Source: Thermoplasmata archaeon
GTDB lineage: Archaea; Thermoplasmatota; Thermoplasmata; GCA-020350865
DNA length: 64,000 nt
NCBI GenBank assembly: GCA_020348445.1
Contig: CP070751.1
Location: 64,001 to 128,000, forward strand
Direction of reading: 5' to 3'
Shown here: positions 8,443 to 59,031 of the stretch, one piece after another
Numbering within the stretch: the stretch's first letter is position 1
Layout of the letters: every line of letters begins with the position of its first letter
Notes under the pieces: model-generated
Databases searched by the model: none
The model's input: only the letters and a program-made list of their open reading frames with translations
What the model was told of the DNA's origin: nothing
Made by a program: the position numbers and the translations under genes

Positions 8443-8468
8443 CCAATAAAAATCTTCAAAATTCGAAG

Positions 8469-9593: not shown

Positions 9594-12500
9594 TTATAAT
9601 AACTCAGTATCTTCCTCGGAAACATCTTCTTTTACTTCACCTACATCTTGTTCCTCAGATATTGGCTCAGTGATGTCCCCCTCTGTTGTGATCTCCTCTT
9701 TACCTTCCAATGTTTTCAATTCCATTAAGTAGTCGTCTATCCTTTTATCTAAAATCAGAAAATGGTTTTCCTCGATCTTGCCCCTGTGAACGTCCTTTTT
9801 GATGTCATTTCTCAGGATGATTAATTCTTCCTCACAGGTCTTGGGATCATCCTTGTATTCATCGAAGGTGTCTTCTACCCTTTCCATATACCGCCTGAGC
9901 TTACCCCGCTTTCTTCTTATAGTCAGGAACCCAATAAGAAATACTATAATTGAAGCTAGGACCGTTAGGCCAGTAACTATTGGTTCCATGGTCTCCCAGC
10001 TAAATAATCCCTTCTCTTCGGGGGCTTTCTCGGTGATAAATTCAATATTATAATTCTTATCGAGTTTTCTTCCGCCGATTTCTGAAGTGGCATTTGAGTA
10101 AATTGTAATTACATATTTCGTACCGTATTGCAAGTTTGAGTCGGGAATAAATATAATAGATTTACCTTCCTTAGCAAACATCCCATCAATGGAAGGGGAA
10201 ATTGAAAATGCCTTATCGACACTTGTCTTATCCATGGCTTCGGTGAAATAAATAGTAATTCTTGTTTCAACATCCACATTTGTAGAAGCATCTTCTGGAA
10301 CGGTACTTAAGATTTGAACATTTACCGTACTCGGATCTGAAACAGTGGTAAATTCCCAAGATATTGCTGATTCAAGAGGATTACCAGTAATGTCCGTTGC
10401 ACCAGTGCCAATAGTGACATTATATGTGGTACTATAATCCAAATCAGAATTTGGTCTGAATACGAGTTGATTGCCTATCCAACTAGAAGAACCACCAACG
10501 TCAGGAAGAATTGAAAATGCACTTTGAACCGAAGCTTGATTCATTGGCCCATCAAATGATATCGTTATGGTTGTGTTTACGGCCACATTGTTGCCCATTG
10601 GGGACTTATCGATTACCGTTGGCGATGTTATATCCTGTGTAACTGTGATATCGATATCATTTAATCCGCTGGGCTCCGTACTGATCTGGCCACTTACTCC
10701 GTAATATTTAATGTTGGAAGGATCAACTCCATCTTCTGCTTTGATGTAATATTCAAGTCCATCTGTCGTAACTGCAGTCCCTGGAATTTCCGAATAGTAA
10801 GTATCTCCAATTGGATTCATTTGCTGCATAGTGTAGGTTGATTGGGAAGGTTTTTTGTAATACAAAAATACATTTTTCACACCACTTTCATCTGTCACAT
10901 CGACAGTGATATTGATAGGGATGCCAGATGAGCCGCTTGTTACGGGAGAATGGGTAATAGAAGGTGGAGTGGTATCAGGATCTTGTATAGTGATATCTAT
11001 GTCAGTGAGAGGGGTGGGCTCAGTACCAGTTTGGCCACTGTTGCCGTAATATAAAATATTGTTAGCTTTGTCTGATGCCTTTAAATAATATTCAAGTCCT
11101 GCCGAAGTTGCTGCACTCCCAGGAATTTCTGCGGAATAGGTATTTCCATCGGCAGTCATTTGCTGCTCAGTATAAAGTGATTCACCCGGTTTTTTATAGT
11201 ATAAAAACACATTTTTTACACCACTTACATCATCTGTCACACCCGCGGTGACAGCAATCGGTGTTCCTGATGTTCCACTGGTAACAACATTATGAGTGAT
11301 GGAGGGTGGAGTCGTATCATCTGTTATTGTTATATCGATATCATCTGTCGAGGTGGGCTCTATCTCAACTCCGCCAAACGAACCAAAGTATATGGTAATG
11401 GCTGGGTCGGTTTTATCAGTTGCCTTTATGTAATATTCAAGTCCTTCTGTGGTAACCGCGGTTCCAGGTAATTCTACATAGTAGGTATTTCCGATGGCGT
11501 ACATTTGTCGTTCGGTATAAGTTGATTCAGTGGGTTTTTTACAATAGAGATATGCCTTATCTATACCACTATGGGCATCCGTAATAACTGCAGTGAAATT
11601 GATTGGAATACCGGTAGCACCGGTTGTAATAGGTGTATGTGAGATGATTGGAGCGGACGTGTCAATATACACATCGACATATCCTTCAATAAGATTTCCA
11701 GCCGTATCAAAAGCTCTTACTGTTATGTTATGAATTCCATCTTCTTGGGAAGGCAATGTATAGGGGCTTGCTTGGGTATAAAAGGAACCATGGTCTATAC
11801 TTACTTTGTAATATTCAACACTGCTTGTCTCATCCGTGGTTGAGAATGAGATCACAGGTTGGGTATCTGTAGTCCAATTACTTGGAGCTGCTATGGGAAT
11901 GAAAGCATTAGGAGGAGTTATATCAATGTACACCTCCACATATTCATCTCGATAATTTCCAGCTTGATCATAGGCCCTGACCGTTATGTTGTGCGTCCCT
12001 TCGGCCTGGGAAGGTAATGTATAAGGACTCATTCGGGTAGTGAAATCACCAGAGTCTATGCTGATATTGTAATAGTCAATACCGCTGAGATCGTCCGTGG
12101 TGAGAAACTCAATTACAGGTTGGGTATTGGATGTCCAGTTACTTGGATCTGCTGTGGGTGTAAAGGAATTTGGGGGTGTGGAATCAAAGATGTAATAGGA
12201 TGCTTCAGGAGGGGTTGATGGATCGGGTGGCTCCTCGTTCTCGGATATGGCTAACCAGCTGTAATAACCGTCCGCGGGTACGGTCCAGGGGTAGATCCCA
12301 TCGGGTGTATTATCGGTATCCATTAAAGTCCATGAATATGGCGCACTTGTATTGAGTGTGTAGTAAATAGTTACATTCGGTGGGGTTCCACTCATATTGT
12401 ATGATATGTTAATGTCCGCCTCATTCACAGGGCCGCCCACTGGACCCGTGGCCATGGTGTATGGAGCTACAGTGAGGCCTGTGTTCCTGAAGTACTCAAC

Positions 12501-13445
12501 AATAGTTACAGCTCTATCATCCCTGGTATATGAGATGTTGAGCTCAGGCCTATAATAATCTGGGGGGACGTCCATGGATACATCAAAATTCCAATTCAAT
12601 TCCAAGTTTCCATCTGCTGAAATGGGCCCTGGATTCGTTGACAGATTGATACCGTCCGAAAAAGTTATGTCTTGAGGTATTCCGCCTAAATTGAGATCGG
12701 CTTCAATATCAGAAATCGAGTAAGGGGCGTGATTTGTCAGTTGAATCTCGCCATCCTGCCAAGTCTCGCCTGCCTCGAAATCCGGGTGAAAATCTGTCTC
12801 ATCGATATCAGGAAGGTCCTCATGCATATCGGTTTCACCAGGGCTATTATCAGGATCGAATATGGAACTCACATAGATATCGAAATAAAAAGACTCGTCT
12901 GCGATAGAGGTGCCTATCGGCTGTTCCATGTTCTCTAGTAATATCCCAAGAGCATCCTCATACAAGAAATTGACATCTCCGCTGTTACCTATGTCAATTG
13001 TAAACTGGAATGTCTCGGATCCAAATGGGAATATTGTATGACCATCATCCTCATCCATATTAGGAGTGAATAGGGGATGGTATGAAACAAGCGTCGCGTC
13101 GCCAACAAAGATATTATCAGTAGAATCAGTATTTTCAAGTGTTAGCCACACATTTACATCCATGTCTCCAAGATGGTAGGCATTACCGTTCATGCTGTCA
13201 AAGTTGATTTGTATCAATTCATCCCAAGGGGGAATTGCTGGGTCATCCTCCATCCAATTATCTTCCCAACGGGCTAATATATCCCCACCTACATTCTCAT
13301 CAGCCATAGCCCTTAAACCTACCATGGCCACAAACGAGCTCACTGACAAGAAAGCTGCCACGCAAATAACAAATAGTATCCTTTTCACACCCGTCATTCC
13401 TATTCCCCCTATCCATTGTGTAGTCACAACTCCAGTTCCATGCAA
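9594..13445 (-). CDS. Array gene 1: large type I surface protein with an acidic non-propeller head, 2 short Ig-like repeats, 3 ITHTPV domains, 2 Big_5-like domains, TM and conserved cytoplasmic domain
   Basis: 1283-aa ORF with a signal peptide (alternative start ATG 13397). C-terminus FSWETMEPIVTGLTVLASIIVFLIGFLTIRRKRGKL...[19 protein letters not shown] is shared with genes 2-9. Confidence 0.9.
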   Translation of the reverse strand: MHGTGVVTTQWIGGIGMTGVKRILFVICVAAFLSVSSFVAMVGLRAMADENVGGDILARWEDNWMEDDPAIPPWDELIQINFDSMNGNAYHLGDMDVNVWLTLENTDSTDNIFVGDATLVSYHPLFTPNMDEDDGHTIFPFGSETFQFTIDIGNSGDVNFLYEDALGILLENMEQPIGTSIADESFYFDIYVSSIFDPDNSPGETDMHEDLPDIDETDFHPDFEAGETWQDGEIQLTNHAPYSISDIEADLNLGGIPQDITFSDGINLSTNPGPISADGNLELNWNFDVSMDVPPDYYRPELNISYTRDDRAVTIVEYFRNTGLTVAPYTMATGPVGGPVNEADINISYNMSGTPPNVTIYYTLNTSAPYSWTLMDTDNTPDGIYPWTVPADGYYSWLAISENEEPPDPSTPPEASYYIFDSTPPNSFTPTADPSNWTSNTQPVIEFLTTDDLSGIDYYNISIDSGDFTTRMSPYTLPSQAEGTHNITVRAYDQAGNYRDEYVEVYIDITPPNAFIPIAAPSNWTTDTQPVISFSTTDETSSVEYYKVSIDHGSFYTQASPYTLPSQEDGIHNITVRAFDTAGNLIEGYVDVYIDTSAPIISHTPITTGATGIPINFTAVITDAHSGIDKAYLYCKKPTESTYTERQMYAIGNTYYVELPGTAVTTEGLEYYIKATDKTDPAITIYFGSFGGVEIEPTSTDDIDITITDDTTPPSITHNVVTSGTSGTPIAVTAGVTDDVSGVKNVFLYYKKPGESLYTEQQMTADGNTYSAEIPGSAATSAGLEYYLKASDKANNILYYGNSGQTGTEPTPLTDIDITIQDPDTTPPSITHSPVTSGSSGIPINITVDVTDESGVKNVFLYYKKPSQSTYTMQQMNPIGDTYYSEIPGTAVTTDGLEYYIKAEDGVDPSNIKYYGVSGQISTEPSGLNDIDITVTQDITSPTVIDKSPMGNNVAVNTTITISFDGPMNQASVQSAFSILPDVGGSSSWIGNQLVFRPNSDLDYSTTYNVTIGTGATDITGNPLESAISWEFTTVSDPSTVNVQILSTVPEDASTNVDVETRITIYFTEAMDKTSVDKAFSISPSIDGMFAKEGKSIIFIPDSNLQYGTKYVITIYSNATSEIGGRKLDKNYNIEFITEKAPEEKGLFSWETMEPIVTGLTVLASIIVFLIGFLTIRRKRGKLRRYMERVEDTFDEYKDDPKTCEEELIILRNDIKKDVHRGKIEENHFLILDKRIDDYLMELKTLEGKEEITTEGDITEPISEEQDVGEVKEDVSEEDTELL

Positions 13446-13482
13446 TAGGCCACCTCCTGGAATTGGACCAGGTATTTGAATA

Positions 13483-13510
13483 ATATATGGATATATAAGT
13501 TTATCTTTTT
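13483..13510 (-). promoter_or_regulatory. Array promoter copy 1 (BRE/TATA-like, most divergent copy)
   Basis: Minus strand AAAAAGATAAACTTATATATCCATATAT, upstream of a GGAGGTG RBS. Confidence 0.65.
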
Positions 13511-13534
13511 ATCTGGTCTTGGTCTCCCTCAATC

Positions 13535-16500
13535 CTATTCAAATCCCCCACCAAGATCTTCTTCCTCTGAAATTGACTCCTCGGAAACTGGCTCTGTAAT
13601 GTCCTCCTCCAACACCTCCCCTGCCTCCTCTTTTTCCATGGTTTTCAAATCCAATAAGTAGTCGTCTATCCTTTTATCCAATATCAGGAAGTGATTTTCC
13701 TCGATCTTTCCCTTCCTAACATCGACTTTAATGTCTTCCCTAAGAGCAATTAGCTCCTGCTCACAAGCTTGTGGGTCCTTTTTGTATTCGTTGAATGTAT
13801 CTTCTATTCTATCTATATGCTTCTTGAGCTTACCACGCTTTCTTCTTATGGAAAGAAATCCAATCAAGAATACGATAATAGAGGCTAGAACTGTTGCTCC
13901 GGTGATTATGGGTTCCCAAACATCCCAAAAGGATTCCTTATCCTGAACCGCGTCAGCTTCTTTTTCTGTTTGGAATGCTTGATTAAATTCAGTCTCAAGG
14001 TCAATGTTAGCCAAATCTTTCGCACTTGTAGAAATTGTTACAGTATACTCGGTATCATAACTCAAGGGAATATCAGGCTTGAATTTTAAAGTGATCCCAG
14101 CCATTTCAACCCATTCGAATTTACCCTCTACATGCGGGGTGATTGAAAAAGCACTCTGTGTAACATTCATAATCATAGTTTCACTAAATGTAATTGTGAT
14201 AATCGAATCAATAGGCACATCAGAACCATCTGGTGACATATCTAATACCTTGGGAGGTATTGTATCTCTTTCCTGGATTAATATATCGATATCATCTAAA
14301 GTTGATGGTGCTGTTAGAACTCGTCCATTTTTACCGAAGTATATAGTGTTAGATGGTAACGAATTATCTACCGCTTTTATATAGTATTCAATAAAATCTG
14401 TGTCAACTGTTGCAGCAGATATTTCAGCGGAATAGATATTTTCTTGAAGGGTCATTTGAATTGGTGTATATACGACTTCGTTTTGTTTTTTAAAGAAGAG
14501 AGTTACACTTGCAACCCCACTATTTTCGTCAGTAACTGTTGCAGCAATTATTATTGATGTTCCTTTGAGTCCGCTTGTAACAGGTGTATGAGTAATCACA
14601 GGTGGAGTTGTATCAATATATACAACAATGTCTTCTTCGATAAAATTACCAACATTATCGAATGCCCGTATGGTTATATTATGAATGCCATTATCTTGAT
14701 GGGGTAATGTGTACGGACTTGTTTGGATCGAAAAACTTTCACCATCAATACTAATTTCATAATGAGCAATATCGCTAAGATCATCTGTTGTCGAAAATGA
14801 TATTTGTGGTTGGGTATTGGAAGTCCAACCCTCAGAACTAGTGGTAGGAGTAAAACTCTCCGGGCCTGTAGTGTCAATATAGACGAATACATATCCTTCA
14901 ATGTAATTTCCAGCTTTGTCAAATGCCCGGACGGTTATGTTATGGATGCCATCATCTTGTGAAGGTAATATATATGGACTTGTTTGGATTGAAAAACTCT
15001 CACCGTCAATGCTTATCTCATAATGATCTATACCGCTAACAACATCCGTTGTTTCGAATGTAATTGTAGGTTGTGTATTATCGGTCCAGCTACTAGGATT
15101 TGCTATAACAGTTAATGGAGAATCAGGAGGCGAGCTGTCATAATATAAATATGTGGTGTTGTAGCTAGTATAATCTTTATTGTTTATGTCGTCTACCAAC
15201 CATATAAATATTTCATTCGAGCTTTCCAAAGGAACTGGAATACCCATGAGGGAATTTATCCCAGGGTTAGTAATCAATGTTCCATCGGTATTGGATGTAG
15301 GTGGAGAGTTGAACCTATAGTAAGCTCCTGCAATACCCGTTAAATCACTTGGATTCGTCCAGGATATATCGAATGAATTTGTGTTAATCCAATTGCTTGG
15401 TGTTACAGAAACTCCAATAGGGGAATCTGGGGCTGTTGCATCGTAGTAAAGATATGTTGTTGTGTAATTCAAATAATTGACATTACCCGCCTCATCGATT
15501 AACCAGACATAAATTGTATGATTGCCATCACCTGTAACTGTGATACCATTTAAGGAAGTAACGTTTGAACCGGCAACGTATGTCCCATCGGTGTCTGAGG
15601 TCGGAGCAGAATCTAACTTGTAATACGCGCCAGTAATACCTGCCGTATCACTTGGATTGGTCCATGAAATATCGAATGAATTTGTATTATTCCAAGTTGC
15701 AGGATTCGCTGTAAGACCTATGGGTGGATCAGGGTCTGAATTATCATACAATAGATAAATTATCGAGTGATTATTATAATCTTTATTGTCTAAGTTATCG
15801 TTTAACCAGACATAGATAGTATGATTGCCTTCACCACTGACAATGATATTATCAATATATGTGATATCCACACCAGCGACATAAGTGCCATCCGTATCGG
15901 AGGTGGGTGCCGATTTCAATTTATAAAATGCCCCAGCTATTCCCGAGAATTCGCTAGGATTAGTCCATGATACCGTAAATGAATTCGTAGATGTCCAATC
16001 ACCAGGTGTAGCTTTCAAATTTATTGGCGAAGAAGGTGCAAGACCATCATAGAATAGAATTGTTGAACTGTAAGTAGTAAAATTCACATTATTTGCATTA
16101 TCTTTTAACCAGATATAAATCGTATGCACACCTGAATCCAAAACAGATATACCGCTTATGTTGTTTATTTCCTGACCCTGGACGTATATACCATCATCAT
16201 TGGATGTTGGCGCAGAATACAATTTGTAATAAACTCCCGCAATACCCGCGTCATCGACTGGGTTAGTCCAAGATACATTGAACGAATTCATATTAGTCCA
16301 ACTGCTGGGAATTGCAGAAACACCAATCGGGGAATCCGGGTCCGTTGTGTCATAATGAAGATATGTTGTTGTGTAATTCAAATAATTGACATTGCCGGCT
16401 TCATCTTTTAACCAGACGTAAATTGTATGATTGCCATCACCTATAACAGAGATATTACCTAAGAAAGTAATGTCCGAACCTACCACAAATATCCCGTCAG

Positions 16501-19500
16501 TATCTGAAGTCGGAGGAGAGTCTAGCCTGTAATATACACCAGCTATCCCTGAGGCATCGATTGGATTGGTCCATGAAATATTAAACGAATTCCTTGAATT
16601 CCAGGTGCTCGGTTCTGCAGAAATTCCACCAGGTGGATCCGGTGCGGTTATATCTATTCCTAGAGTTTGGTAGGAGCTGTACGCACTCCAATTTCCATCA
16701 GAGTCCTTTGTGCGGACTTTCCAGAACCAAAAACCCTCAGCCATTGTAGTGTATCCTGTACCTGAAGGGAACTGCCAAAATTCGTTTGATGAACTTTGTT
16801 CACCGCTGTTATAATCTAGGCTTGTAAAACTGCTGTCATTATCGATCACAACTTGAAATTCTGTCTGGGTGCTGTCGGAATCGTTAAAACTCCAGCTGAA
16901 ATATGGGGTAGTATCGTTTGTCATAAAATTATCGGTAGGATTTAATGAACCGGGCGGGCCAGGTATTAAATTAAAATGTATGGTCAAATTATGTAAAACT
17001 GGTGTAATACTTGTGTTGCTCGTGTTTAGATAGGCTTCATATTGGAACCATTGTTCTCCGTGATGCCCCGACCAGATATTTGTTCCGGATGTTGTGTAAA
17101 AAGTGGAAGGTGTTCCATCGGGCCCTACAAAGTTCTTAACCGATAAACCGCCTTGTGTAGTCGCAGATCTTAATTGGAATTTAATTTCTGTATTTGCGGG
17201 TACGGTCGCATTCCAGTTAATTGTCCGCCACGAAACCTCTCCTCCAGTATTATATGGCTCTGACACCAATGTACCTAATGAAAAATACTGTTGATACGAT
17301 AAATTTATGTTCCTTAGAATAGGCGTGTCTATTCCATCAGAATAGAAATTGACATGGTAGTAAAATCTAGAACCATTCCATCCTAAAGTAGTGAGGTCAA
17401 TGAGATTTGTACCTCCGGATATAGTATCCCAACCATTTATAGAACCGGAAGAATTATACCAGTTAAAAGAGTCTTTTGAAAATTGCACTTTAATACCTGT
17501 TCCAAAGGGCTTGACTACTTCACATGTAAAATTATTAATCGAATATATCTTACTATCGGTAAGTATATTATTAGAAATTATCTCACCCCAAGATGAATCG
17601 TCTTTAACCAGCCAGATATTGGGTTTACCTGGAACACCGATCCCATAAGAGTACGTATCACCAACGATGATATATCCTCCATTAGGGGTCTGCTGAACTT
17701 CTTTACCCCATCCACCCCAGAAGAATTTAAACCATTTCTCATTCCCTAAAGAATCGGTTTTGATAGAATCAATAGTGCCTGTAATTATAAAACCTCCATC
17801 GAATGTCTGCTGGACAGAATACCCCCTATCATTACCACTCCCGCCGAAGGTTTTATTCCATTGCTCATTACCGAAAGAATCTGTCTTAATCAGCCATACA
17901 TCCCAACCTCCAGCACCATAAGTGTTTGTTTCTCCAGCTATGATATATCCTTCATCGGTAGTCTGTTGTACTGAATAACTGTAATCAGGGTCAGATGCAC
18001 CGCCGAAAGTCTTATTCCATATCTCATCTCCATTATTATCAGTTTTAATCAACCATACATCTCCGCCTATATATCCCGCTATTATAAAGCCGCCATCAGT
18101 GGTCTGTTGAACTGAATATCCCCTATCAGCAAAATTAACACCGAAGGTTTTGTTCCACTGTTCATTGCCTGACGAATCAGTCTTGATCAACCAGACATTA
18201 TAATTACTTGCACCAAAAGACATTGTACCACCAGCAAGGATAAAGCCATCATCAGAAGTCTGCTGTACTGAATACCCATAATCATGTTGGGGTCCACCGA
18301 AAGTTTTTTCCCAATGCTTATTACCTGAGGAGTCGGTCCTAATCAGCCAGACATCATAATTACTCCCACCAAAAGGCCATCTATACCCAACAATAATATA
18401 ACCGCCATCAGAGGTTTGTTGAACCGATTGACCACTACCACCCACTAATGAACCGAGGGTTTTGTTCCATTGCTCATTTCCTAACGAATCGGTCTTTATC
18501 AGCCATGCATCAGAAGTACCTACACTAAAAGAAGACGTGTCCCCAGTGATAATAAAGCCGCCATCAAAGGTCTGTTGGACTGAATAACCATATTCATAAC
18601 TAGCCCCACCGAAGGATTTACTCCATGACTCGACATCGGACGAATCTGTCTTAATCAGATATGCATCAGTTCCTCCCGCACCGTAAGAATATGTATACCC
18701 GGCAATAATATATCCTCCGTCAAAGGTTTGTTGGACTGAATAGGTATATTCACCTGAACTCCCACCGAAGATTTTATTCCATACCTCATTGCCTAATGAA
18801 TCGGTTTTGATCAGCCAAGCATCATAACCATCACCAAAGGAGCTTGTATAACCTGCAATGACATACCCCCCATCAGAAGTTTCTTGGACTGAATAACCTT
18901 GGTCCCAACCATTTCCGCCAATTGAATTATTCCATTGCTCGTTACCTGACGAATCTGTTTTAATTAACATTACATCCCTATGGCCGAGACTAAATAAATA
19001 AGTATAACCAGCTATGATAAATCCACCATCGGAGGTCTGCTGGAGGGATTCACCATAACTATAATCACCTACATTGAAGGTCTTATTCCATATCTCAGTT
19101 CCTAAAGAATCGGTCTTGATTAACCAGGCGGTCCAATTACCAACAGAACCATAAGATCGTGTAGTTCCAGCGATGATAAAGCCACCATCAGGGGTTTCCA
19201 GTACTGCTCGACCATGATCCCGGTCATCCCCACCAAAGGTTCTATTCCATTGCTCTATGCCGGTTTCGTTCGTTTTAATCAGCCAGGCATCCCAACTGCC
19301 TGCACCCCAAGAGCCGATATCTCCTGTAATGATATACCCACCATCGGAAGTTTCCTGAACTGCCTCACCATAATCAATGGAACTCCCGCCGAAGGTTTTA
19401 TTCCAAAGCTCATTACCTGATGAATCGGTCTTGATTAGCCATGCATCCCAATTGCTACCAACACCATAAGATTGTGTACTCCCAGCGATGATAAATCCGC

Positions 19501-21124: not shown

Positions 21125-21160
21125 ATATACCCCCCCGTTTTGTATAATTCCTGAAATTAA

Positions 21161-21191
21161 GATAGAATATGGATATTTAAGTTTATCTTTT
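21161..21191 (-). promoter_or_regulatory. Array promoter copy 2
   Basis: Plus strand gatagaatatggatatttaagtttatctttt. Confidence 0.75.
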
Positions 21192-21216
21192 TATCTGACC
21201 CTGGCCTCCCTCAATC

Positions 21217-27909: not shown

Positions 27910-27946
27910 GTTTGCCCCCTCCGGTTTGTATAAATCCTGAAATTAA

Positions 27947-27976
27947 AATAAAATATGGATATTTAAGTTTATCTTT
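27947..27976 (-). promoter_or_regulatory. Array promoter copy 3
   Basis: Plus strand aataaaatatggatatttaagtttatcttt. Confidence 0.75.
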
Positions 27977-27985
27977 CTATTTGAA

Positions 27986-31624: not shown

Positions 31625-31662
31625 ATTGGTCCCCTCCGTGTCTGTATAAATTCTGAAATTAA

Positions 31663-31695
31663 GATATAATATGGATATTTAAATTTATCTTTTTT
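31663..31695 (-). promoter_or_regulatory. Array promoter copy 4
   Basis: Plus strand gatataatatggatatttaaatttatctttttt; TTTAAATA on the minus strand. Confidence 0.8.
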
Positions 31696-31758
31696 CTGAA
31701 ATAAATTGGGGATCTTTTATGGAATTCTTAATTGGAGAAATTATGAGCCTTTCTGTAA

Positions 31759-39720: not shown

Positions 39721-39758
39721 ATTAGTCCCCTCCGTGACTGTATAAATCTTGTAATTAA

Positions 39759-39788
39759 GATATAATATGGCTATTTAAATTTATCTTT
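39759..39788 (-). promoter_or_regulatory. Array promoter copy 5
   Basis: Plus strand gatataatatggctatttaaatttatcttt. Confidence 0.8.
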
Positions 39789-39855
39789 ATTTTTGAAATA
39801 TCTAGAGAGGATTTTAGGGAAGGCTTAATTAATGAAATTACGAGCCTCACTGCAT

Positions 39856-44319: not shown

Positions 44320-44358
44320 AAGAAGCCCCCTCCGTGTTATTGTAAATCTTATGGATAA

Positions 44359-44389
44359 GATATAATATGGCTATTTAAAATTATCTTTT
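44359..44389 (-). promoter_or_regulatory. Array promoter copy 6
   Basis: Plus strand gatataatatggctatttaaaattatctttt. Confidence 0.8.
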
Positions 44390-44413
44390 GTCTGGCCCCG
44401 GTCCCATTAAATC

Positions 44414-49855: not shown

Positions 49856-49893
49856 GTTGGCCCCCTCCGAGTTACTGTAAATTTAATTGATTA

Positions 49894-49922
49894 GATATAA
49901 TATGGATATTTAAAATTATCTT
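49894..49922 (-). promoter_or_regulatory. Array promoter copy 7
   Basis: Plus strand gatataatatggatatttaaaattatctt. Confidence 0.8.
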
Positions 49923-49948
49923 CCTTTAAGACTAACTCCTCTTCTTCC

Positions 49949-52900
49949 CTATTCAAATCCCCCGCCAATATCTTCATCCTCGGAAACAGGCTCTGTAATG
50001 TCCGCTTCCAACACTGCCCCTGCTTCCTCTTTTTCCAGGGCTTTCATTTCCATTAGATAATCATCGATCTTCTTATCCAGAATTAGGAAGTGGTTTTCCT
50101 CGAGCTTGCCTTCCTTTACCTCGGCTTTAATGTCCTCCCTAAGAGCGATCAGTTCTTGCTCGCATTCTTGAGGATCCTTTTTATATTTATTGAATGTATC
50201 ATCTATTCTTTCAATATACTGTCGGAGTTTGCTGCGTTTCTTTCTTATAGTTAGGAACCCAATAAGAAATATAATAATTGAAGCTAGGACCGTTAGACCA
50301 GTGACTATTGGTTCCAAGTTTTCCCAGCTAAATAATCCTTTCTCTTCGGGCGCTTTTTCGGTAATAAACGACCAAGTGTGGTTACGCTCAAGACCAATAC
50401 CATCTAAATTCTTCGCTCGTGTGGAGATACTCACATTATATAAGGTTTCATATGCTAATGGAGAGCTAGGAGTAAACTCGAGAGTATGCCCACGCCAAGT
50501 GAATACCCCCTTTACACTTGGAGTTATTGAAAACGCCTGTTCAGTTTCACCCTTTATCATTTCCTCACTAAATGAAACTTCTATGGTCGTACTGACCTTA
50601 ACATCAGTACCTATTGGCGACCAAGACAAATCTACAACATTTGGGTGAGTTATACCGTTAGCTTGGGTTGTTGTAATAAATTGCCAATTGTATTCACGGG
50701 TCATATTATTACCAGCTAAATCCGTCGCATTTCTTGAAATACTCAACTCGTAGATAGTACCAACTGATAAGGGTGAACTAGGTGTAAAAGTTAGAACTGA
50801 TATCCCTTGCCATGAAAATACTCCAGATGTAGTTGGAGAAATCGAAAATGAATCTTCCACTGAGGTTCTATTCATTTCTTCACTAAATACGATGGTAATT
50901 GTTGTATCTATAGGGACATCAGAGCCTTCTGGGGAATAATCAAGTATTGTTGGCGGCCATGTATCATCTTCTGTTATGGTAATACCGATATCAGTTGAAG
51001 GAACAGGCTGTGTATCAGTTTGTCCACTTCCGCCATAATAAGCGATATTGTTCGCTTTATCCACTGCTTTTATGTAGTAATCGATACCATCCAAAGTAAC
51101 TGCACTTCCTGGTATTTCACCAGAGTATGTATTTCCATTGGCAGTCATTTGCTGTTCTGTGTATGACGGATCACTGGATTTTTTATAATACAAAAATGCA
51201 TATTCTACACCACTACCATCATCTGTCACACCTGCAGAAATAATAATTGGGGTGCCTGATGTACCACTGGTAACTGGTGTATGGGTAATTACGGGTAAGC
51301 TCGTGTCATCTGCTACTGTAATATCGATGTCATTTGATGAGATAGGCTCAATATCAATTGGGCCAAAAGCACCATAATATATGATATTGGGTGAATCGGC
51401 ATTGTCAACTGCTTTGATATAATATTCAAGTCCGTCTGTGGTAATGGCAGTTCCAGGTATTTCTACAAAGTAAGTATTTCCATCGGCGCTCATTTGCTGC
51501 TGGGTGTAGGTCGTTTCAATGGGTTTTTTAATGTACAGAAATACATCTTGGATACCGCTATCATCATCCACAACCTCTGCTGTGATATTAATTGGCACAC
51601 CTATAATACCACTGATAACAGGTGTATGGGTGATAGAAGAGGGAGTGGTATCAATATAAACATCTACATAACTTTCATAATAATTTGCAGCTTCATCGTA
51701 AGCTCTTACTGTGATGTTATGGACCCCGTCAGTCTGAGAAGGTATTGTATATGGGCTAGTCTGGGTAGAAAAACCACCACTATCGATCTTTACCTCATAG
51801 CGATTAACACCTGTGGTTACATCTGTAGTAGAGAATGTAATTACTGGTTGGGTATTGCTCGTCCAGCCGCTTGGATCAGCTGTGGGTGTAAAACTGACTG
51901 GAGGCGTGGCATCTATTGTGATGTTCCAGTAGATACTATAAGGTCCCCAGTCACCATCACTGTCTTTTGTCCTTACTTTCCAATACCAGTTACCGTCAGC
52001 AATTGGGAGGATTGGTGTGTACGATGGAGTTCCTGAAGTCCTCTCCCCGCTATTATAATTAACACTACCAAATCCGCTATCATCGTCTATTAGAACCTGA
52101 AAGCCACCGTGAGTGCTGTCTGTATCAAAAAAATTCCAAGTAAACACAGGTTTACTATTGTTTGTGAGAGTATCGTCTGCGGGACTTAACAATTGAGGTT
52201 CTAATGGAATATAATTATAAAATATTGTTATCTCTTCTAAAACAGGTGTATAACTTGTATCTGTGGTTTCTAGATATACCTTGTATTGAATCCACTGGTC
52301 AGAATCATGGACAAACAAGATATCGGTCCCAGGGATTTCATAATAACTTGCGGGAGTTCCGTCAGGACCTAAAAAATCGCCTCCTGAGCTTTGGCTTTTC
52401 AATTGAAATTTGATACTTGTGTTAGTAGGTTCTGCGCCGGTCCAACTTATAGTTGTCCAGTTTACACCATTACCTGCATCAAAAACCTGTGATATTAAAT
52501 TGCCTTCAGATAAGTATTTTGTGAATGAAACATTAATACCATGAACACTTGGAGCGTCTATAGTATCAGATGTAAAGTTCAATTTGTAATAAAAGTGAGA
52601 ACCTAGCCAACTCAAGGATGATAAGTTTATTAAATTCATACCATCATTTAGTAAATCCCATTCATTTTCCGATCCACTAGAATTATACCAATTAATATTA
52701 TTTTGGGAAAATTGTACCTTTATTTTGGTCTTGGATGGTATCGATGTATTACAAGTGAAATTGTTTATCAAATTAGCTTCTTCATCTACAATTAAATTTC
52801 TTGAGGTCAATTCACCGTAATAAAAGGGCACATAACCAGTATCATTGGTTTTAATAAGCCAGACATCAGAGCCTCCGGCACCGTAAGAGGATGTGCCCCC

Positions 52901-54223
52901 GGTGATAATAAAACCGCCATCAGAGGTCTCCCGAACCTCTTGACCATTATCACCTAAACTCCCACCAAATGTTCTATTCCACTGTTCAATTCCCGAAGAA
53001 TTGATTTTAATGAGCCATAAATCTGAGCTTCCAACACTGTAAGAGTTTGTTTTTCCAGTAACGATAAAACCACCATCAGATGTTTCTTGGACTGAATATC
53101 CCCGGTCATCATCGCTTCCACCGAAGCTCTCATTCCACAGTTCATTTCCGGAAGAATCGGTTTTAATTAGCCAGGCATTATAATTATTAGCACCAAAAGA
53201 GTTCGTATATCCTGTCATAATATAGCCGCCATCCGAAGTCTCTTGAACTGAATAACCATAGTCCGATCCTTCCCCACCGAGGGTCTTGTTCCACACCTCA
53301 GAACCTAATCCACTGACTTTTATCACCCATGCATCAGCTTTTCCTGCACCCCAAGATGATGTAGATCCAGTTATAATATAGCCTTTATCCGATGTTACCT
53401 GAACCTCCTGACCGACATCTCCAAAACTCCCGCCGAAGGTCCTATTCCACTTTAAATCACCTCCAGAATCTGTTTTAATCAACCACGCATCATTATTTCC
53501 TGCACCCCAAGATGCTGTTTGCCCGGCGATGATATAACCGCCATCGGGAGTCTGTTGGACTGAGTTTCCAACATCTCCTAAACTCCCGCCGTAGTTATTG
53601 CTCCATTCTTCAACACCAGTGTCATTGGTCTTTATCAGCCATACATCACCATCAGGACTAATAGAGTATGTAACTCCAGTAATGATAAAGCCGCCATCAG
53701 AGGTTTCTTGAACTGATCTGCCTTCATCCTCATCCCACCCTCCACCGAAGGTCGTATTCCACTCCTCATCACCCGTGCTATTGGTTTTTATCAGCCATAC
53801 ATCATAGCCACCGTAAGATAGTGTATACCCCGTGATGATATAACCTCCGTCTGATGTCTGGTTGATAGAATATCCCACATCCTCATCAACCCCACCGAAG
53901 GTCTGATTAATTTTTTTAAGTTTTATTTCACCTAATATGGTATTTATATCTAAGTTCAATTTTTCCTCGATATAATAACAATCGAAGAAATCGTCTTTTA
54001 TATAATTTGCTTGTAAATTAAGTTTCAACTCACCCGTTGATGTAACATTCAAGTCAGTCAATGTCCCGTTATTAAAATCCTGGGCAGTCGTCTGCATCCA
54101 GCTCGAACTAGCAGAAGCGTTCTTGACAAGCGGCTCATCAAAAGGTATCACCTGAAATAAGGACAATATTAGCAATACACCTATGAACCATCGAAATACT
54201 CGTCTTACCTTACGCCCACACAT
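49949..54223 (-). CDS. Array gene 8: 1424-aa surface protein; 7-blade head, 1 short Ig-like repeat, 2 ITHTPV and 2 Big_5-like domains, TM, conserved tail
   Basis: ORF track plus hand count of repeats. Confidence 0.92.
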   Translation of the reverse strand: MCGRKVRRVFRWFIGVLLILSLFQVIPFDEPLVKNASASSSWMQTTAQDFNNGTLTDLNVTSTGELKLNLQANYIKDDFFDCYYIEEKLNLDINTILGEIKLKKINQTFGGVDEDVGYSINQTSDGGYIITGYTLSYGGYDVWLIKTNSTGDEEWNTTFGGGWDEDEGRSVQETSDGGFIITGVTYSISPDGDVWLIKTNDTGVEEWSNNYGGSLGDVGNSVQQTPDGGYIIAGQTASWGAGNNDAWLIKTDSGGDLKWNRTFGGSFGDVGQEVQVTSDKGYIITGSTSSWGAGKADAWVIKVSGLGSEVWNKTLGGEGSDYGYSVQETSDGGYIMTGYTNSFGANNYNAWLIKTDSSGNELWNESFGGSDDDRGYSVQETSDGGFIVTGKTNSYSVGSSDLWLIKINSSGIEQWNRTFGGSLGDNGQEVRETSDGGFIITGGTSSYGAGGSDVWLIKTNDTGYVPFYYGELTSRNLIVDEEANLINNFTCNTSIPSKTKIKVQFSQNNINWYNSSGSENEWDLLNDGMNLINLSSLSWLGSHFYYKLNFTSDTIDAPSVHGINVSFTKYLSEGNLISQVFDAGNGVNWTTISWTGAEPTNTSIKFQLKSQSSGGDFLGPDGTPASYYEIPGTDILFVHDSDQWIQYKVYLETTDTSYTPVLEEITIFYNYIPLEPQLLSPADDTLTNNSKPVFTWNFFDTDSTHGGFQVLIDDDSGFGSVNYNSGERTSGTPSYTPILPIADGNWYWKVRTKDSDGDWGPYSIYWNITIDATPPVSFTPTADPSGWTSNTQPVITFSTTDVTTGVNRYEVKIDSGGFSTQTSPYTIPSQTDGVHNITVRAYDEAANYYESYVDVYIDTTPSSITHTPVISGIIGVPINITAEVVDDDSGIQDVFLYIKKPIETTYTQQQMSADGNTYFVEIPGTAITTDGLEYYIKAVDNADSPNIIYYGAFGPIDIEPISSNDIDITVADDTSLPVITHTPVTSGTSGTPIIISAGVTDDGSGVEYAFLYYKKSSDPSYTEQQMTANGNTYSGEIPGSAVTLDGIDYYIKAVDKANNIAYYGGSGQTDTQPVPSTDIGITITEDDTWPPTILDYSPEGSDVPIDTTITIVFSEEMNRTSVEDSFSISPTTSGVFSWQGISVLTFTPSSPLSVGTIYELSISRNATDLAGNNMTREYNWQFITTTQANGITHPNVVDLSWSPIGTDVKVSTTIEVSFSEEMIKGETEQAFSITPSVKGVFTWRGHTLEFTPSSPLAYETLYNVSISTRAKNLDGIGLERNHTWSFITEKAPEEKGLFSWENLEPIVTGLTVLASIIIFLIGFLTIRKKRSKLRQYIERIDDTFNKYKKDPQECEQELIALREDIKAEVKEGKLEENHFLILDKKIDDYLMEMKALEKEEAGAVLEADITEPVSEDEDIGGGFE
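52835..53908 (-). repeat. 7 x blade repeats (gene 8)
   Basis: Same consensus, counted by hand. Confidence 0.9.
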
Positions 54224-54262
54224 TAGAAGCCCCCTCCGTGTTATTGTAAATCTTATGGATAA

Positions 54263-54291
54263 GATATAATATGGCTATTTAAAATTATCTT
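54263..54291 (-). promoter_or_regulatory. Array promoter copy 8
   Basis: Plus strand gatataatatggctatttaaaattatctt. Confidence 0.8.
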
Positions 54292-54317
54292 CCTTTAAGG
54301 ATGGCTACTCTTCTACC

Positions 54318-57300
54318 TTATTCAAATCCCCCGCTAACCTCTTCTTCCTCAGAAACCGGTTCAGTGATATCCTCCTCTGGAACAGCCTCTGCCTCTCCTT
54401 TTTCCATGACCTTTATTTCTAGTAAAAAGTCGTCAATCTTTTTATCCAAAATCAGAAAGTGGTTTTCCTCGATTTTACCCCTGTGAACGTCCTTTTTAAT
54501 GTCCTCTCTCAGGAGGATTAACTCCTCCTTACAGGTCTTGGGATCTTCCTTGTACTCGTCGAAGGTGTCTTCTATCCTTTCCATATACTGTTTGAGCTTG
54601 CCCCGCTTTTTTCTTACGGCAAGGAATCCAATCAAGAACACAATAATAGATGCTAAAACTGTTACGCCAGTAATAATTGGCTCCCACGTCTCCCAAAACG
54701 GTTTTGCTGCCTCTTCGGGTCGTTTCTCAGTATAGAAACTACTCACATATTCCTCTTCCATATGTTGTCCATTCTCATTTGTGGCATCTATAGATATTGT
54801 AAGGGTATACTTTGTATCGTAATCAAGAGGTTCGCGGGGTTTAAGAACAAGATAGTCTTCTGAACCCCATTGGGGAATAAGTTCAATATATGGCTCGATG
54901 GTGATAGCACCCTCAGTTGTATCTGGATCCATATCTTGAGTGAACTTGATTTCGATTTGGATTCCAACACCAACATCCAACTCATTCTTTTCTGGATCTA
55001 TTGTCTCTACTTCCGGCCCTGTTCCAGGTTCCGGGATAGTGGTAAACTCCCATGATGTCACTGTCCCCAGGGGATTACCAAATAAGTCCTTAGCACCCGT
55101 TCCAATGGTTACATTGTAGGTAGTAAAATAAGCAAGGTCTGAATCAGGATCGAATTTTAAAGTGTTTCCATTCCAACTAAAGGCGCCAAAAACAGATGGT
55201 AAAATCGTAAATGCACTTTGCGTTAATAATTGATTCATTGGTTCACTGAATGTGACTGTTATGTTTGTGGTTACAGCCACATTTGTACCTGTCGGGGTCT
55301 TGCCCGTAATCGATGGAGGAATTATATCCTGGGTTATTTCGATATCGATGTCATTTGATCCAGTGGGTTCTGTGGTAGTCTGGCCACTGGTGCCGTAGTA
55401 GATAATATTAGGGATTTGATCAGAGGCACTGATATAATATTCAAGTCCATCTGAAGTAACTGCTGCTCCAGGGATTTCCACTGAATATGTATCTCCGGTG
55501 TCGGCATTCATTTGCAGCGCAATATAGCTTGAATCGCTCGGTTTTTTATAATAAAGTATTACCTCATCTAAGCCACTTCCAACATCTTCAACAATTGCCT
55601 CGATTTCAATAGGCTCCCCAACTTCACCACTGGTTACAGGAGTGTGGGTTATGGAAGGCAATCCAGTATCGATATAGATGTCTCTATAACCTTCAACATA
55701 ATTTCCAGCTTTGTCGTATGCTCTTACTGTGATGTTATGAATCCCATCGGTCTGAGCCGGTATTGTGTACGGGCTTGTTTGAGTTGAAAAAGCTCCTGAG
55801 TCTATCTTTACCTCATAACGATCAATTGAACTGGTCTTATCTGTTGTAGAGAAATAAATATTAAACTGAGTTTCTGAGGTCCAGGTATCATAATCGGCAG
55901 TGGGAGTAAAACTGTAAGGGGGTGTCGAATCTATCACAAATGTCCAATAGGTGCTGTAGTCTCCCCAATCAAGAACATCATTTTGAGTGCGAACTCTCCA
56001 GTACCAGGTTCCATCATCTATATCGCCTGTGATTTGCCAATGTTCATTACTAGAGGTCTGAAGATCACTATCATAGATTATATCTGAGAAAGTGTCGGCA
56101 TCACTGATTTGAACCTGAAAACCGATTTGGGAACCGATTATATCGTTAAATCTCCAACTGAACTCAGGTGTTGTATCACTTAACAAAGAACCATCGGAAG
56201 GACTGATCAAGTCAGGTGGATATGCGAGAGTGAAGTTATAAAAAATTGTTACATCCTCCAATAAGGGTGTTAAGCTTCTGTCTGCTGTTCTTAAAAATAC
56301 TCTGAACTGCATCCATTGGTCACCATTATGGCCCGGATATATCTCCTCTCCAGGTGATGTATAATACGTATCAGAGGTTCCTCCCCTACCTATATAATTT
56401 ACTAAATCTAATCCCGATTCATCAGAGGCTGTTCGAAGTTGAAATTGAAAATCCAAACCAGAAACTGTTGTTCCGTTCCACTTAATAGCTACCCATCTAA
56501 CAGGTGCAGTGGCATCAAATGATTGCGATTCAAATACGCCTAAATAGTAATATTGACTGAAAGAGAAGTTAATGTTTTGAACACTTGGGGCAGTATCACC
56601 GTACCATTGGAATATCATCCTGTAGTAGAAGTTACCTTGTGTAAAATCCAAGGATGATAGATCAATGGAATTAAAGCCATCGTTTAACAATTGCCCACCA
56701 TCCCAATTATTTAAATCTTCAGAAAATTCAATATATATGCTTCCACTGCCAGAGGTGGGGATTGATACAGTACACTCAAAGGTAGTTAATGAAACCACTT
56801 CTTGACCTTCAAGTAAATTACTTGATATCAATTCACCGTATGTAAATTCAAGATTACCTAAAGAATCGGTTTTTAACAGCCAGACATCTTCAGCACCTGC
56901 GCCATATGAATCTGTAGTACCTGTAATTATATAACCGAAATCAGACGTCTCTGATACTGAGTAACCGTAATCATCCCTGCCTCCACCAAAAGTCTTATTC
57001 CATATCTCACTGCCTGTAGAGTCAGTTTTGATCAACCATAAATCCTCCAAGCCAGAGCCGAAAGATTTGGTCAAACCAGCAATCACAAAATCTCCATCAT
57101 TTGTTATAACAACTGATTGACCTCTATCATCATCAATGCCTCCAAAGGTCTTTTTCCATTCTTCAGATCCGTTGATATCTGTTTTAATCAACCATACATC
57201 GTAATTACCAGCACCATAGGATTTTGTACGGCCAGTGATTATAAAACCACGATCCGAAGTTTCACGAACAGAAGTACCCGCATCAGAATCGGATGAAAAT

Positions 57301-58265
57301 GCACCAAAGGTCCAATTCCAATACTCATTGCCTGAGGAATCGGTTTTAAGAAGCCATAAATCCTCCCATCCAGGTCCAAAAGACCATGTGTATCCTGTTG
57401 CAATATATCCTCCGTCTGAAGTCTGTTGTACAGAATGAAATGCATCACGCATATCTTTATGATCACCGTAAGTTCTATTCCAAAGCTCGTTTCCTGATGA
57501 GGTGGTTTTTATTAACCAAGCATCCCCCTCAGTACCTCCATAGGACTCTGTCATGCCAGCAATTATATATCCGCCGTCTGAGGTCTGATGGAATGAAGTG
57601 CACCAATCAAGTCCATTCCCGCCAAAGGTCATATTCCATTCTTCATGTCCATTTTCATCAGTTTTGATCAGCCAGGCATCAGAACCACCATTACCAAATG
57701 AATTTGTATTTGCAGCAATAATATACCCAAGATCAGAGGTCTGATGAACTGATCTTCCATAATCCCAAAAACCACCACCAAAAGTTCTGTTCCACTGCTC
57801 TATTCCATTTGAATCAGTTTTTATTAACCATACATCGCCCCATACTCCATCCCCATAACTTACTGTTTCTCCCACAAGTATATACCCATCCTCAGATGTC
57901 TGCTGAACTAAAATACCATTATCATGATCATTCCCGCCAAAAGTTCTGTTGAATTTAATTAGCCGAGCTTCACCTAAAGCAGTATCCACGGTAATATTAT
58001 CTTTGTAGCTAATTTTAGATTCATCAATAAAATCATCTTCCACATAATTGCTCTGCAAAGCAAGTTTCACCTCACCAGTAGGTGTAACTGTTACATTTGT
58101 TAAGGTTCCGCTATTGAAATCTCCCGCAGTCGTCTGCACCCAGCTCTCATCTGCAGATACATTCCCAATAAACGGCTCGTCAAAAGGTATTACCTGAACT
58201 ACAGACAATATCAGCAGTACACATATACATACTCGAAATGTTCGCCTCGCCTTGTGCCCACACAT
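54318..58265 (-). CDS. Array gene 9: 1315-aa surface protein; 7-blade head, 1 short Ig-like repeat, 2 Big_5-like domains, TM, conserved tail
   Basis: ORF track plus hand count of repeats. Confidence 0.92.
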   Translation of the reverse strand: MCGHKARRTFRVCICVLLILSVVQVIPFDEPFIGNVSADESWVQTTAGDFNSGTLTNVTVTPTGEVKLALQSNYVEDDFIDESKISYKDNITVDTALGEARLIKFNRTFGGNDHDNGILVQQTSEDGYILVGETVSYGDGVWGDVWLIKTDSNGIEQWNRTFGGGFWDYGRSVHQTSDLGYIIAANTNSFGNGGSDAWLIKTDENGHEEWNMTFGGNGLDWCTSFHQTSDGGYIIAGMTESYGGTEGDAWLIKTTSSGNELWNRTYGDHKDMRDAFHSVQQTSDGGYIATGYTWSFGPGWEDLWLLKTDSSGNEYWNWTFGAFSSDSDAGTSVRETSDRGFIITGRTKSYGAGNYDVWLIKTDINGSEEWKKTFGGIDDDRGQSVVITNDGDFVIAGLTKSFGSGLEDLWLIKTDSTGSEIWNKTFGGGRDDYGYSVSETSDFGYIITGTTDSYGAGAEDVWLLKTDSLGNLEFTYGELISSNLLEGQEVVSLTTFECTVSIPTSGSGSIYIEFSEDLNNWDGGQLLNDGFNSIDLSSLDFTQGNFYYRMIFQWYGDTAPSVQNINFSFSQYYYLGVFESQSFDATAPVRWVAIKWNGTTVSGLDFQFQLRTASDESGLDLVNYIGRGGTSDTYYTSPGEEIYPGHNGDQWMQFRVFLRTADRSLTPLLEDVTIFYNFTLAYPPDLISPSDGSLLSDTTPEFSWRFNDIIGSQIGFQVQISDADTFSDIIYDSDLQTSSNEHWQITGDIDDGTWYWRVRTQNDVLDWGDYSTYWTFVIDSTPPYSFTPTADYDTWTSETQFNIYFSTTDKTSSIDRYEVKIDSGAFSTQTSPYTIPAQTDGIHNITVRAYDKAGNYVEGYRDIYIDTGLPSITHTPVTSGEVGEPIEIEAIVEDVGSGLDEVILYYKKPSDSSYIALQMNADTGDTYSVEIPGAAVTSDGLEYYISASDQIPNIIYYGTSGQTTTEPTGSNDIDIEITQDIIPPSITGKTPTGTNVAVTTNITVTFSEPMNQLLTQSAFTILPSVFGAFSWNGNTLKFDPDSDLAYFTTYNVTIGTGAKDLFGNPLGTVTSWEFTTIPEPGTGPEVETIDPEKNELDVGVGIQIEIKFTQDMDPDTTEGAITIEPYIELIPQWGSEDYLVLKPREPLDYDTKYTLTISIDATNENGQHMEEEYVSSFYTEKRPEEAAKPFWETWEPIITGVTVLASIIVFLIGFLAVRKKRGKLKQYMERIEDTFDEYKEDPKTCKEELILLREDIKKDVHRGKIEENHFLILDKKIDDFLLEIKVMEKGEAEAVPEEDITEPVSEEEEVSGGFE
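56856..57950 (-). repeat. 7 x blade repeats (gene 9)
   Basis: Same consensus, counted by hand. Confidence 0.9.
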
Positions 58266-59000: not shown

Positions 59001-59031
59001 ATGATCACCATACCATTTTCATCTTTCTAAT

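Follow-up and report, generated by a model that had tools for sequence, protein, structure and literature searches.

A tandem array of nine predicted surface proteins on a widespread membrane anchor in an uncultured Thermoplasmata archaeon

Very little is known about the cell surface of uncultured Thermoplasmata from sediments, and such archaea may use membrane-anchored glycoproteins for attachment, for substrate capture or as virus receptors. We analysed a 64,000-nucleotide stretch (the window; C1:64001-128000) of the single-contig 5.16-Mb genome of an uncultured sediment Thermoplasmata archaeon, in which nine consecutive paralogous open reading frames (ORFs) on the minus strand occupy positions 9594-58265. 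The locus raises the question of whether such an array is a repertoire of receptors or variant adhesins with many specificities feeding one intracellular output or anchor, as a reading of the letters alone (the sequence-only reading) had proposed, or an expanded family of a more familiar kind. As set out below, we think it probable, though by no means certain, that the array arose by lineage-specific tandem expansion of a family of type I membrane-anchored, adhesin-like or binding-type glycoproteins.

The ORF list and the nine translations bear out the layout first described for the locus, that is, same-strand paralogues of 1212-2653 amino acids (aa) separated by short gaps (76-135 bp; 89, 92, 76, 134, 135, 94, 93 and 94 bp in order), each with a signal peptide, an ectodomain, an immunoglobulin (Ig)-like stalk, a transmembrane (TM) helix and a conserved tail. 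All nine proteins begin with a basic and hydrophobic signal peptide, continue into a large acidic ectodomain with Ig-like repeats and Big_5 domains, and end in a single TM helix, the residues RKKRSK and a conserved tail of ~95 aa. The genes and their modules, from the N terminus to the C terminus, are as follows.

9594..13445, minus strand: gene 1 (P0001, 1283 aa); signal peptide, non-propeller head of ~420 aa, 2 OmpL47/Big_13-type Ig repeats, 3 'HTPVTSG...YYIKA' (HTP) domains, 2 Big_5, TM helix and cytoplasmic bundle; tail coded at 9594-9998.
13535..21124, minus strand: gene 2 (P0002, 2529 aa); 21 propeller blades, double beta-sandwich, Fn3-like domain, 5-6 'SGIAGAYYKL' 101-aa repeats, 2 OmpL47-type repeats, 1 HTP, Big_5, TM helix and tail (13535-13927).
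21217..27909, minus strand: gene 3 (P0003, 2230 aa); 21 blades, double beta-sandwich, Fn3-like, 3 OmpL47-type, 1 HTP, 2 Big_5, TM helix and tail (21217-21597).
27986..31624, minus strand: gene 4 (P0004, 1212 aa), the minimal member; 7 blades (residues 91-456), double beta-sandwich (455-690), Fn3-like, 1 OmpL47-type, 1 HTP, 1 Big_5, TM helix and tail (27986-28363).
31759..39720, minus strand: gene 5 (P0005, 2653 aa), with the longest stalk; 21 blades, double beta-sandwich, Fn3-like, 9 OmpL47-type 87-aa repeats, 1 HTP, Big_5, TM helix and tail (31759-32181).
39856..44319, minus strand: gene 6 (P0006, 1487 aa); 7 blades, double beta-sandwich, Fn3-like, 3 OmpL47-type, 1 HTP, 2 Big_5, TM helix and tail (39856-40278).
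44414..49855, minus strand: gene 7 (P0007, 1813 aa); 7 blades, double beta-sandwich, Fn3-like, 6-7 'SGIAGAYYKL' repeats, 1 OmpL47-type, 1 HTP, Big_5, TM helix and tail (44414-44803).
49949..54223, minus strand: gene 8 (P0008, 1424 aa); 7 blades, double beta-sandwich, Fn3-like, 1 OmpL47-type, 2 HTP, 2 Big_5, TM helix and tail (49949-50326).
54318..58265, minus strand: gene 9 (P0009, 1315 aa); 7 blades, double beta-sandwich, Fn3-like, 1 OmpL47-type, 1 HTP, 2 Big_5, TM helix and tail (54318-54695).

The transmembrane helix and cytoplasmic tail

The tails of the nine proteins match a common profile at 230-246 bits, with pairwise identities of 60-83%, and all follow the consensus of a TM helix, R/K-rich residues and then ID-TY--YK-----CE-EL--L----I------GKI-E--Y-ILDK-ID-YL. 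Nearly invariant C, G, L and Y positions are kept in 56 diverse tail members. An AlphaFold2 (AF2) model of a 130-residue segment, computed with a 56-sequence alignment, has a predicted local distance difference test (pLDDT) score of 92.6 and places helices at residues 3-53, 57-76 and 82-115; the tail is thus confidently predicted to be a folded three-helix bundle in which the TM helix runs on into the cytoplasm (residues 3-53). The helical bundle spans ~70 aa and is followed by a disordered acidic end.

The original description had the TM helix and tail near-invariant beneath variable ectodomains. Mean pairwise identity by segment was 62% for the signal peptide and N-terminal domain, 57% for the propeller, 49% for the beta-sandwich pair, 53% for the Fn3-like domain, 63% for the last OmpL47-type repeat, 51% for the HTP domain, 42% for the last Big_5 domain, 78% for the TM helix, 73% for the cytoplasmic helices and 64% for the acidic end. 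The gradient is therefore real but moderate, the tail being the best conserved part (TM helix 78% and helices 73%, against 42-63% in the ectodomain), and near-invariance is not borne out.

Sixteen copies of the tail profile occur in the source genome, comprising the nine array genes, two further strong matches and five weaker ones. The profile is present in three of four genomes of the same genus and in none of a sample of 36 genomes from other genera in the class; a broader version matched 34 of 301 Thermoplasmatota genomes, in 25 of 138 genera, with more distant matches in Hydrothermarchaeales. An exhaustive profile search of 1.84 billion representatives returned 504 matches at E ≤ 1e-3, 151 of them at E ≤ 1e-10, in proteins ranging from 84 to 5694 aa, and the relatives of the window recovered by tail search were uncultured Thermoplasmata metagenome-assembled genomes (MAGs). 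Where the sources name the matching proteins at all, they are hypothetical proteins. The tail has no NCBIfam match and no Pfam match even at E ≤ 10, and a Foldseek search of the PDB gave nothing at E ≤ 1e-3, the best hit being YlaN (E = 0.08), with MIT and BAG bundles at E > 3; its fold neighbours in a structure atlas were unnamed clusters. Neither profile nor fold searches found a catalytic, nucleotide-binding or DNA-binding signature. This is, then, an anchor module without a database family that is represented by 504 sequence clusters and by about one in nine of the sampled Thermoplasmatota genomes.

A SHOCT-like reading of the tail motif was set aside, the array tails having no Pfam support for it at E ≤ 10; the single SHOCT_2 match lies in one distant protein (P0083, residues 387-407), apart from that protein's tail match at 204-293. 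A two-copy complex prediction of the TM helix and tail scored 0.00, which we count neither for nor against binding.

The same cassette carries quite different ectodomains elsewhere. In relatives it is found on PQQ-type propellers with Fn3 domains, on PKD arrays and on Ig arrays, and within the source genome it is found on a protein with LamG and beta-helix regions and on a 3418-aa rod, while small tail proteins carry Big_5 alone, TPR or almost no ectodomain. Since Big_5 usually sits directly before the TM helix, the portable unit appears to be Big_5, TM helix and bundle together; and since it is found on unrelated ectodomains and on tiny proteins, the tail is better described as a portable anchor cassette than as an output specific to the array. 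Two small tail-only proteins have no shared neighbour gene that could be a partner. These results support one half of the sequence-only reading, a modular family on a shared anchor and cytoplasmic module, with a tail model (pLDDT 92.6) that goes beyond a stop-transfer sequence; the fear that the tail might be only a generic stop-transfer segment is laid to rest by a folded, portable domain with 504 representatives. The other half, one intracellular output, finds no support in a ~70-aa bundle that lacks any enzymatic or DNA-binding signature and sits on hundreds of unrelated proteins.

Tight arrays of four to five genes for PQQ-type propeller (+PKD) proteins of ~730-920 aa with a diverged tail were seen in other Thermoplasmatota (G088:C30, G088:C6 and G125:C2), so tandem arrays on the TM and bundle anchor recur. 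A record labelled 'Fidelibacterota bacterium' (CP070787.1:367600-387899) encodes a 1280-aa protein with PKD and Big_5 domains whose tail is 54% identical to the Thermoplasmata profile and which is 40% identical to gene 4 over Big_5 and tail (BLASTP); the bin may be mislabelled or the gene may have been transferred. The tails of genes 2, 3, 7, 8 and 9 end in GGGFE or SGGFE after the acidic stretch, and those of a related array end in an E/G-rich stretch without this motif.

Heads, stalks, promoters and flanking genes

To count propeller blades we used repeat hidden Markov models (HMMs) built from the array proteins themselves. With a repeat period of 52 aa, these found exactly seven blades in genes 4, 6, 7, 8 and 9, exactly 21 in genes 2, 3 and 5, and none in gene 1. 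The blades match the seven-bladed propeller of CylK among PDB sequences (phmmer, E = 2.4e-13); Pfam SBBP (PF06739) gave no match at E ≤ 0.01 in the nine proteins, and the NCBIfam SBBP lipoprotein model scored 24.9 bits against a cutoff of 400. Because the counts are exactly 7 or 21 and the nearest solved match is the CylK propeller, the heads of eight of the nine proteins are predicted to consist of one or three seven-bladed SBBP-type propellers of a single family. These eight share one architecture at 57-62% identity, at odds with the initial impression that the heads vary widely. The sole exception is gene 1 (9594-13445), for whose head we found no PDB sequence match and no Pfam match, the structure atlas giving only sub-threshold CARDB-like leads.

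The module that follows the propeller is modelled as two beta-sandwiches (AF2, pLDDT 90.4), and 59 archaeal surface proteins carry this pair behind an SBBP, Kelch or NHL propeller. Fold searches with Foldseek and VIA-align gave it only generic jelly-roll matches (Z ≤ 7.6), within the background of the tool. In two metagenome proteins (P0183 and P0194), a cassette of propeller, double beta-sandwich and Fn3 is fused to a TM helix and, on the cytoplasmic side, a MarR/HTH_24 winged-helix domain, which makes both proteins candidates for one-component regulators tethered to the membrane in other archaea.

The stalks differ chiefly in the number of their modules, with 1-9 OmpL47/Big_13-type repeats of 87 aa, 0-7 'SGIAGAYYKL' repeats of 101 aa, 1-3 HTP domains and 1-2 Big_5 domains per gene, giving stalks of roughly 5 to 14 Ig-like domains. 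Big_5 (PF13205, SbsA-type) is present in all nine proteins in one or two copies beside the TM helix, at 47-113 bits (gathering score 23.6 bits). The OmpL47 model NF047446 scored 65.3 and 40.6 bits (cutoff 40), and Big_13 exceeded 27 bits in P0001, P0003, P0005 and P0006. The ectodomains are acidic, with an isoelectric point of ~4.1. In each of the nine proteins, N-glycosylation sequons are more frequent than in shuffled sequences (z = 1.1-3.7), and their positions are conserved in the blades (15/19) and in the OmpL47-type repeats (8/8), suggesting that the array proteins are probably N-glycosylated.

Heads and stalks appear to have been recombined. An 87-kb Joint Genome Institute (JGI) metagenome contig carries a syntenic array that opens with a homologue of the small ORF at 58374-58898, which lies directly upstream of our array, and then encodes, in order, a protein with 7 blades, one with a Kelch propeller, one with 7 blades, one with 21 blades and 9 OmpL47-type repeats, and one with a further head type. 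The signal peptide, Big_5 domain, TM helix and tail are common to all of these genes, the first of which is also preceded by the promoter block of the array described here. The tails of the Kelch-headed and 21-blade-headed genes are nearly identical (support 100/99). Within the window, a tree of the middle domain unites genes 2, 3 and 5 (100/100), and a tree of the stalk places gene 3 with gene 6 (99/97), apart from genes 2 and 5 (100/99); approximately unbiased (AU) tests on either partition reject the grouping seen in the other (p = 0.011 and 5.2e-5). The Kelch head and the discordant head and stalk trees support the idea that heads are swapped onto a shared chassis, and document a shuffling from which, together with changes in repeat number, the diversity of the family seems to arise.

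Each gene also has its own promoter copy, as had been claimed for the locus: a 26-bp block and a GGAGGGG ribosome-binding site stand upstream of all nine. Aligned with one another, the nine upstream regions have a mean column identity of 74% and share a TATA-like TTTAAATA, a conserved CCATATTATATCTTA segment downstream of this TATA box and the GGAGGGG site at a fixed distance from the start codon. Searching the 5.16-Mb genome with a 26-bp pattern made from the invariant positions (GATAA..TTA.ATA..CATAT..TAT, one mismatch allowed) gave nine matches, every one of them upstream of an array gene, and the reversed pattern, used as a control, gave none genome-wide. The matches are located as follows.

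13480..13505, minus strand: promoter block of gene 1, containing the TATA-like TTTAAATA.
21162..21187, minus strand: promoter block of gene 2.
27948..27973, minus strand: promoter block of gene 3.
31664..31689, minus strand: promoter block of gene 4.
39760..39785, minus strand: promoter block of gene 5.
44360..44385, minus strand: promoter block of gene 6.
49895..49920, minus strand: promoter block of gene 7.
54264..54289, minus strand: promoter block of gene 8.
58305..58330, minus strand: promoter block of gene 9.

Identity between paralogues at the DNA level reaches at most 82% and is typically ~65-70% in coding DNA, where synonymous sites are saturated, with no near-identical stretches; the best blocks of identity span each tail and the promoter of the next gene. 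Because the coding DNA has drifted so far, the promoter element is taken to be under maintenance, and a cis-element private to the array suggests common regulation of the nine genes.

The array is flanked by unrelated housekeeping genes, with no conserved signalling gene beside it, and the window has no tRNA or Rfam matches. Directly upstream lies a small membrane ORF with an acidic tail (58374..58898, minus strand), a candidate member only, whose homologue holds the same position before the related metagenome array. Its N-terminal TM segment lies in another frame (58374-59031), across a T8 run at ~58976-58983, and the break is either a frameshift or a homopolymer sequencing error. Next comes a giant PKD-repeat surface protein (ORF 59032-63999, minus strand, reaching ~65820 in window coordinates) with 13 PKD_4 stretches and TSP3-like acidic repeats, together with a TM helix and a cytoplasmic tail rich in Pro and Lys, which is another type of anchor; because its TM tail differs, we do not count this tenth large ORF as an array member. 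Beside the 3' end of the array, two small overlapping ORFs (8415-9540, plus strand) encode a protein with a weak match to the ABC-3C middle component MC4 (E = 5e-4, below cutoff) and a TM protein of no family. Further away, at 2733-4733 (plus strand), lies a presenilin/signal-peptide-peptidase homologue (PF06550, E = 2.5e-69) in which an inserted FG-GAP/BBS-like beta-propeller region of ~300 aa separates the N-terminal TM segments from the protease core.

Possible roles of the array

Because all nine proteins stand on a widespread anchor, an expanded adhesin-like family is more likely than a new signalling system. In such a family, a Sec-type signal peptide would export each protein, and the exposed head would consist of an N-terminal cap, one or three SBBP-type seven-bladed propellers and the jelly-roll beta-sandwich pair. 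The predicted stalk, made of the Fn3-like domain, 1-9 OmpL47/Big_13-type repeats, 0-7 101-aa repeats, 1-3 HTP domains and 1-2 Big_5 domains, would set the distance of the head from the membrane by its domain number, and Big_5, the TM helix and the three-helix bundle with its acidic end would hold the protein in the membrane. The role of this cassette is most likely a general one, because it is used for many unrelated ectodomains across Thermoplasmatota and in the source genome; the cassette probably sets the topology of the protein and anchors or positions it, and may do so by docking to a shared partner close to the membrane. Diversity in the family would come from altered repeat numbers and from recombination exchanging heads and stalks between the genes of the array, with one array-specific promoter element, kept by all nine genes, providing common regulation.

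Several observations weigh against this account. The label 'adhesin' is drawn from architecture alone, and no fold or sequence match gives the cytoplasmic bundle a function (best PDB hit YlaN, E = 0.08). A folded domain with a nearly invariant Cys exceeds what simple anchoring needs, so a role in signalling or tethering may exist. Homologous ectodomain cassettes are fused to a cytoplasmic MarR-type winged helix-turn-helix (wHTH) domain in other archaea, from which it follows that such ectodomains could serve as sensors. Finally, the clades compared in the AU tests were named only after the trees had been seen.

The first alternative is the receptor repertoire itself, in which propeller heads would sense ligands and the conserved bundle would relay the signal to a common intracellular partner. 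It retains weight because the bundle is folded and conserved, better so than the ectodomain and with nearly invariant residues even in distant members, and because related propeller, beta-sandwich and Fn3 ectodomains occur on the membrane-tethered MarR/wHTH proteins P0183 and P0194; an array-specific promoter would also be compatible with feedback regulation. We nevertheless consider it improbable, given a tail of ~70 helical residues that bears no signature of catalysis, nucleotide binding or DNA binding and is likewise attached to proteins with next to no ectodomain and to giant ectodomains of unrelated kinds, and given that no conserved signalling gene lies beside the array or beside the two small tail proteins. 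Eight of the nine heads belong to the same family, which makes the range of specificities narrow, and the many specificities first ascribed to the locus are accordingly not supported within the array.

Many Thermoplasmata lack a conventional wall, and the paralogues could instead be alternative or co-assembled subunits of an S-layer or canopy, in an envelope of membrane-anchored glycoproteins. Their C-terminal TM anchor and their acidic, sequon-bearing ectodomains with Big_5 domains are typical of archaeal envelope proteins, and graded stalk lengths could build a layered coat. Such a role seems unlikely to us, however, as nine diverged paralogues and at least seven other proteins on the same anchor in the genome leave no single dominant subunit, relatives carry single genes with quite different ectodomains on this anchor, and propeller heads on long flexible stalks fit binding proteins better than lattice formers.

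A more speculative view, to which we give only a small share of credence, combines the general anchor with a cytoplasmic function. Big_5, TM helix and bundle might form an unrecognised archaeal surface-display system, in which the bundle, with its nearly invariant Cys, would dock many different ectodomains to one cytoplasmic or membrane-skeletal partner for sorting, clustering or mechanical coupling, much as the tails of integrins or cadherins work through adaptor proteins. The array would then be a co-regulated repertoire of binding heads held at graded heights and driven by a private promoter.

A variant-surface system, in which one paralogue at a time would be expressed to escape viruses or grazers (as with var, VSG or Campylobacter sap), is highly improbable. 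Surface proteins are common virus receptors, and a tandem array of exposed paralogues with shuffled modules is what such a system might look like, but no copy lacks a full promoter or a ribosome-binding site, silent cassettes are absent, the heads have the same fold at 57-62% identity, and a DNA identity of at most 82% leaves no room for recent gene conversion.

The chance that the array is a mis-assembled or inflated repeat is very small: although this is repeat-rich DNA in a MAG with 82% marker completeness on a single 5.16-Mb contig, the copies differ by at least 18% in DNA and are unlike in length and in their modules, none of the nine ORFs is broken over up to 2653 codons, and the same members (7-blade, 21-blade with 9 repeats, and others) recur in synteny on the independent JGI contig, all of which makes assembler collapse or inflation unlikely.

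Comparison with known systems

The sequence-only reading had likened the array to clustered protocadherins and to var-type families, and both analogies fail on mechanism, as each gene has its own tail and a complete promoter, with no silent cassettes or invertible elements. Clustered protocadherins do share the tandem array, one promoter per variable unit and a common C-terminal cytoplasmic part. Their tail is spliced from constant exons, however, whereas that of the array is encoded in each gene, and Pfam finds no cadherin domain in the nine proteins.

Integrin alpha subunits and other animal receptors with a propeller on an Ig stalk share the seven-bladed head, the Ig-like stalk, the single TM helix and the short conserved tail. 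The array propeller differs in being of SBBP/CylK type rather than FG-GAP, there is no beta-subunit partner, and the tail is predicted to be a folded three-helix bundle; consistent with this, no FG-GAP or integrin Pfam match was found in the nine proteins, whose tails read RKKRSKLR... and lack GFFKR. The likeness is a functional one, and no sign of homology was seen. The C-terminal beta-propeller of CylK (PDB 7RON, 7FH6-8), seven-bladed and of SBBP type, is by sequence the closest solved relative of the head repeats, but CylK itself is soluble, a cyanobacterial enzyme that alkylates its substrate and whose N-terminal domain binds Ca, and no catalytic kinship with the array is implied.

Among archaeal loci, VARTIG of Thermococcales is likewise a locus of large Ig-domain surface proteins that diversifies by recombination (PMC8416519). 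As the abstract of that paper describes it, VARTIG has a hypervariable Ig domain at the C terminus and variable genes downstream of it, much like a polymorphic toxin system; in the array, conservation is highest in the C-terminal part, and the genes downstream are more paralogues rather than cassettes.

Searches of the literature brought up no account of the array, of its tail or of the source genomes, and the earlier claim that the layout has no known archaeal counterpart is upheld to the extent that no described family covers the whole architecture in Pfam, NCBIfam and PDB fold searches. What has been learned offers handles for annotation, in the form of a new domain model, for expression studies in enrichments and for asking whether archaeal surface proteins couple to a cytoplasmic partner.

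Close known systems also include adhesin-like and other very large modular proteins on the surface of archaea and bacteria, such as the adhesin-like proteins (ALPs) of methanogens, Big/PKD-repeat adhesins and the OmpL47 and SBBP lipoproteins of Leptospira. Shared with them are modular Ig-repeat and propeller ectodomains, including Big_5, Big_13 and OmpL47-type domains, as well as multi-copy families, variable repeat number and a presumed binding of substrates or cells. The array proteins differ in their anchor, which is the TM and bundle cassette rather than PGF-CTERM, a lipobox or wall-binding repeats; their C-termini have no PGF motif of the kind seen in archaeal S-layer glycoproteins with a PGF-CTERM/archaeosortase anchor and consist of the TM helix and the 95-aa cytoplasmic domain with its acidic end. 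They differ also in their strict 7 or 21 blades, in the nine-gene layout and in a promoter element that only these nine genes carry. Their ectodomains are put together from standard adhesin modules, archaeal surface proteins in tandem families are already known as a kind, and the array is not a new kind of system; what is new is the widespread TM and bundle anchor, the strict 7/21 blade organisation, the array-only promoter element and the documented shuffling of heads and stalks.

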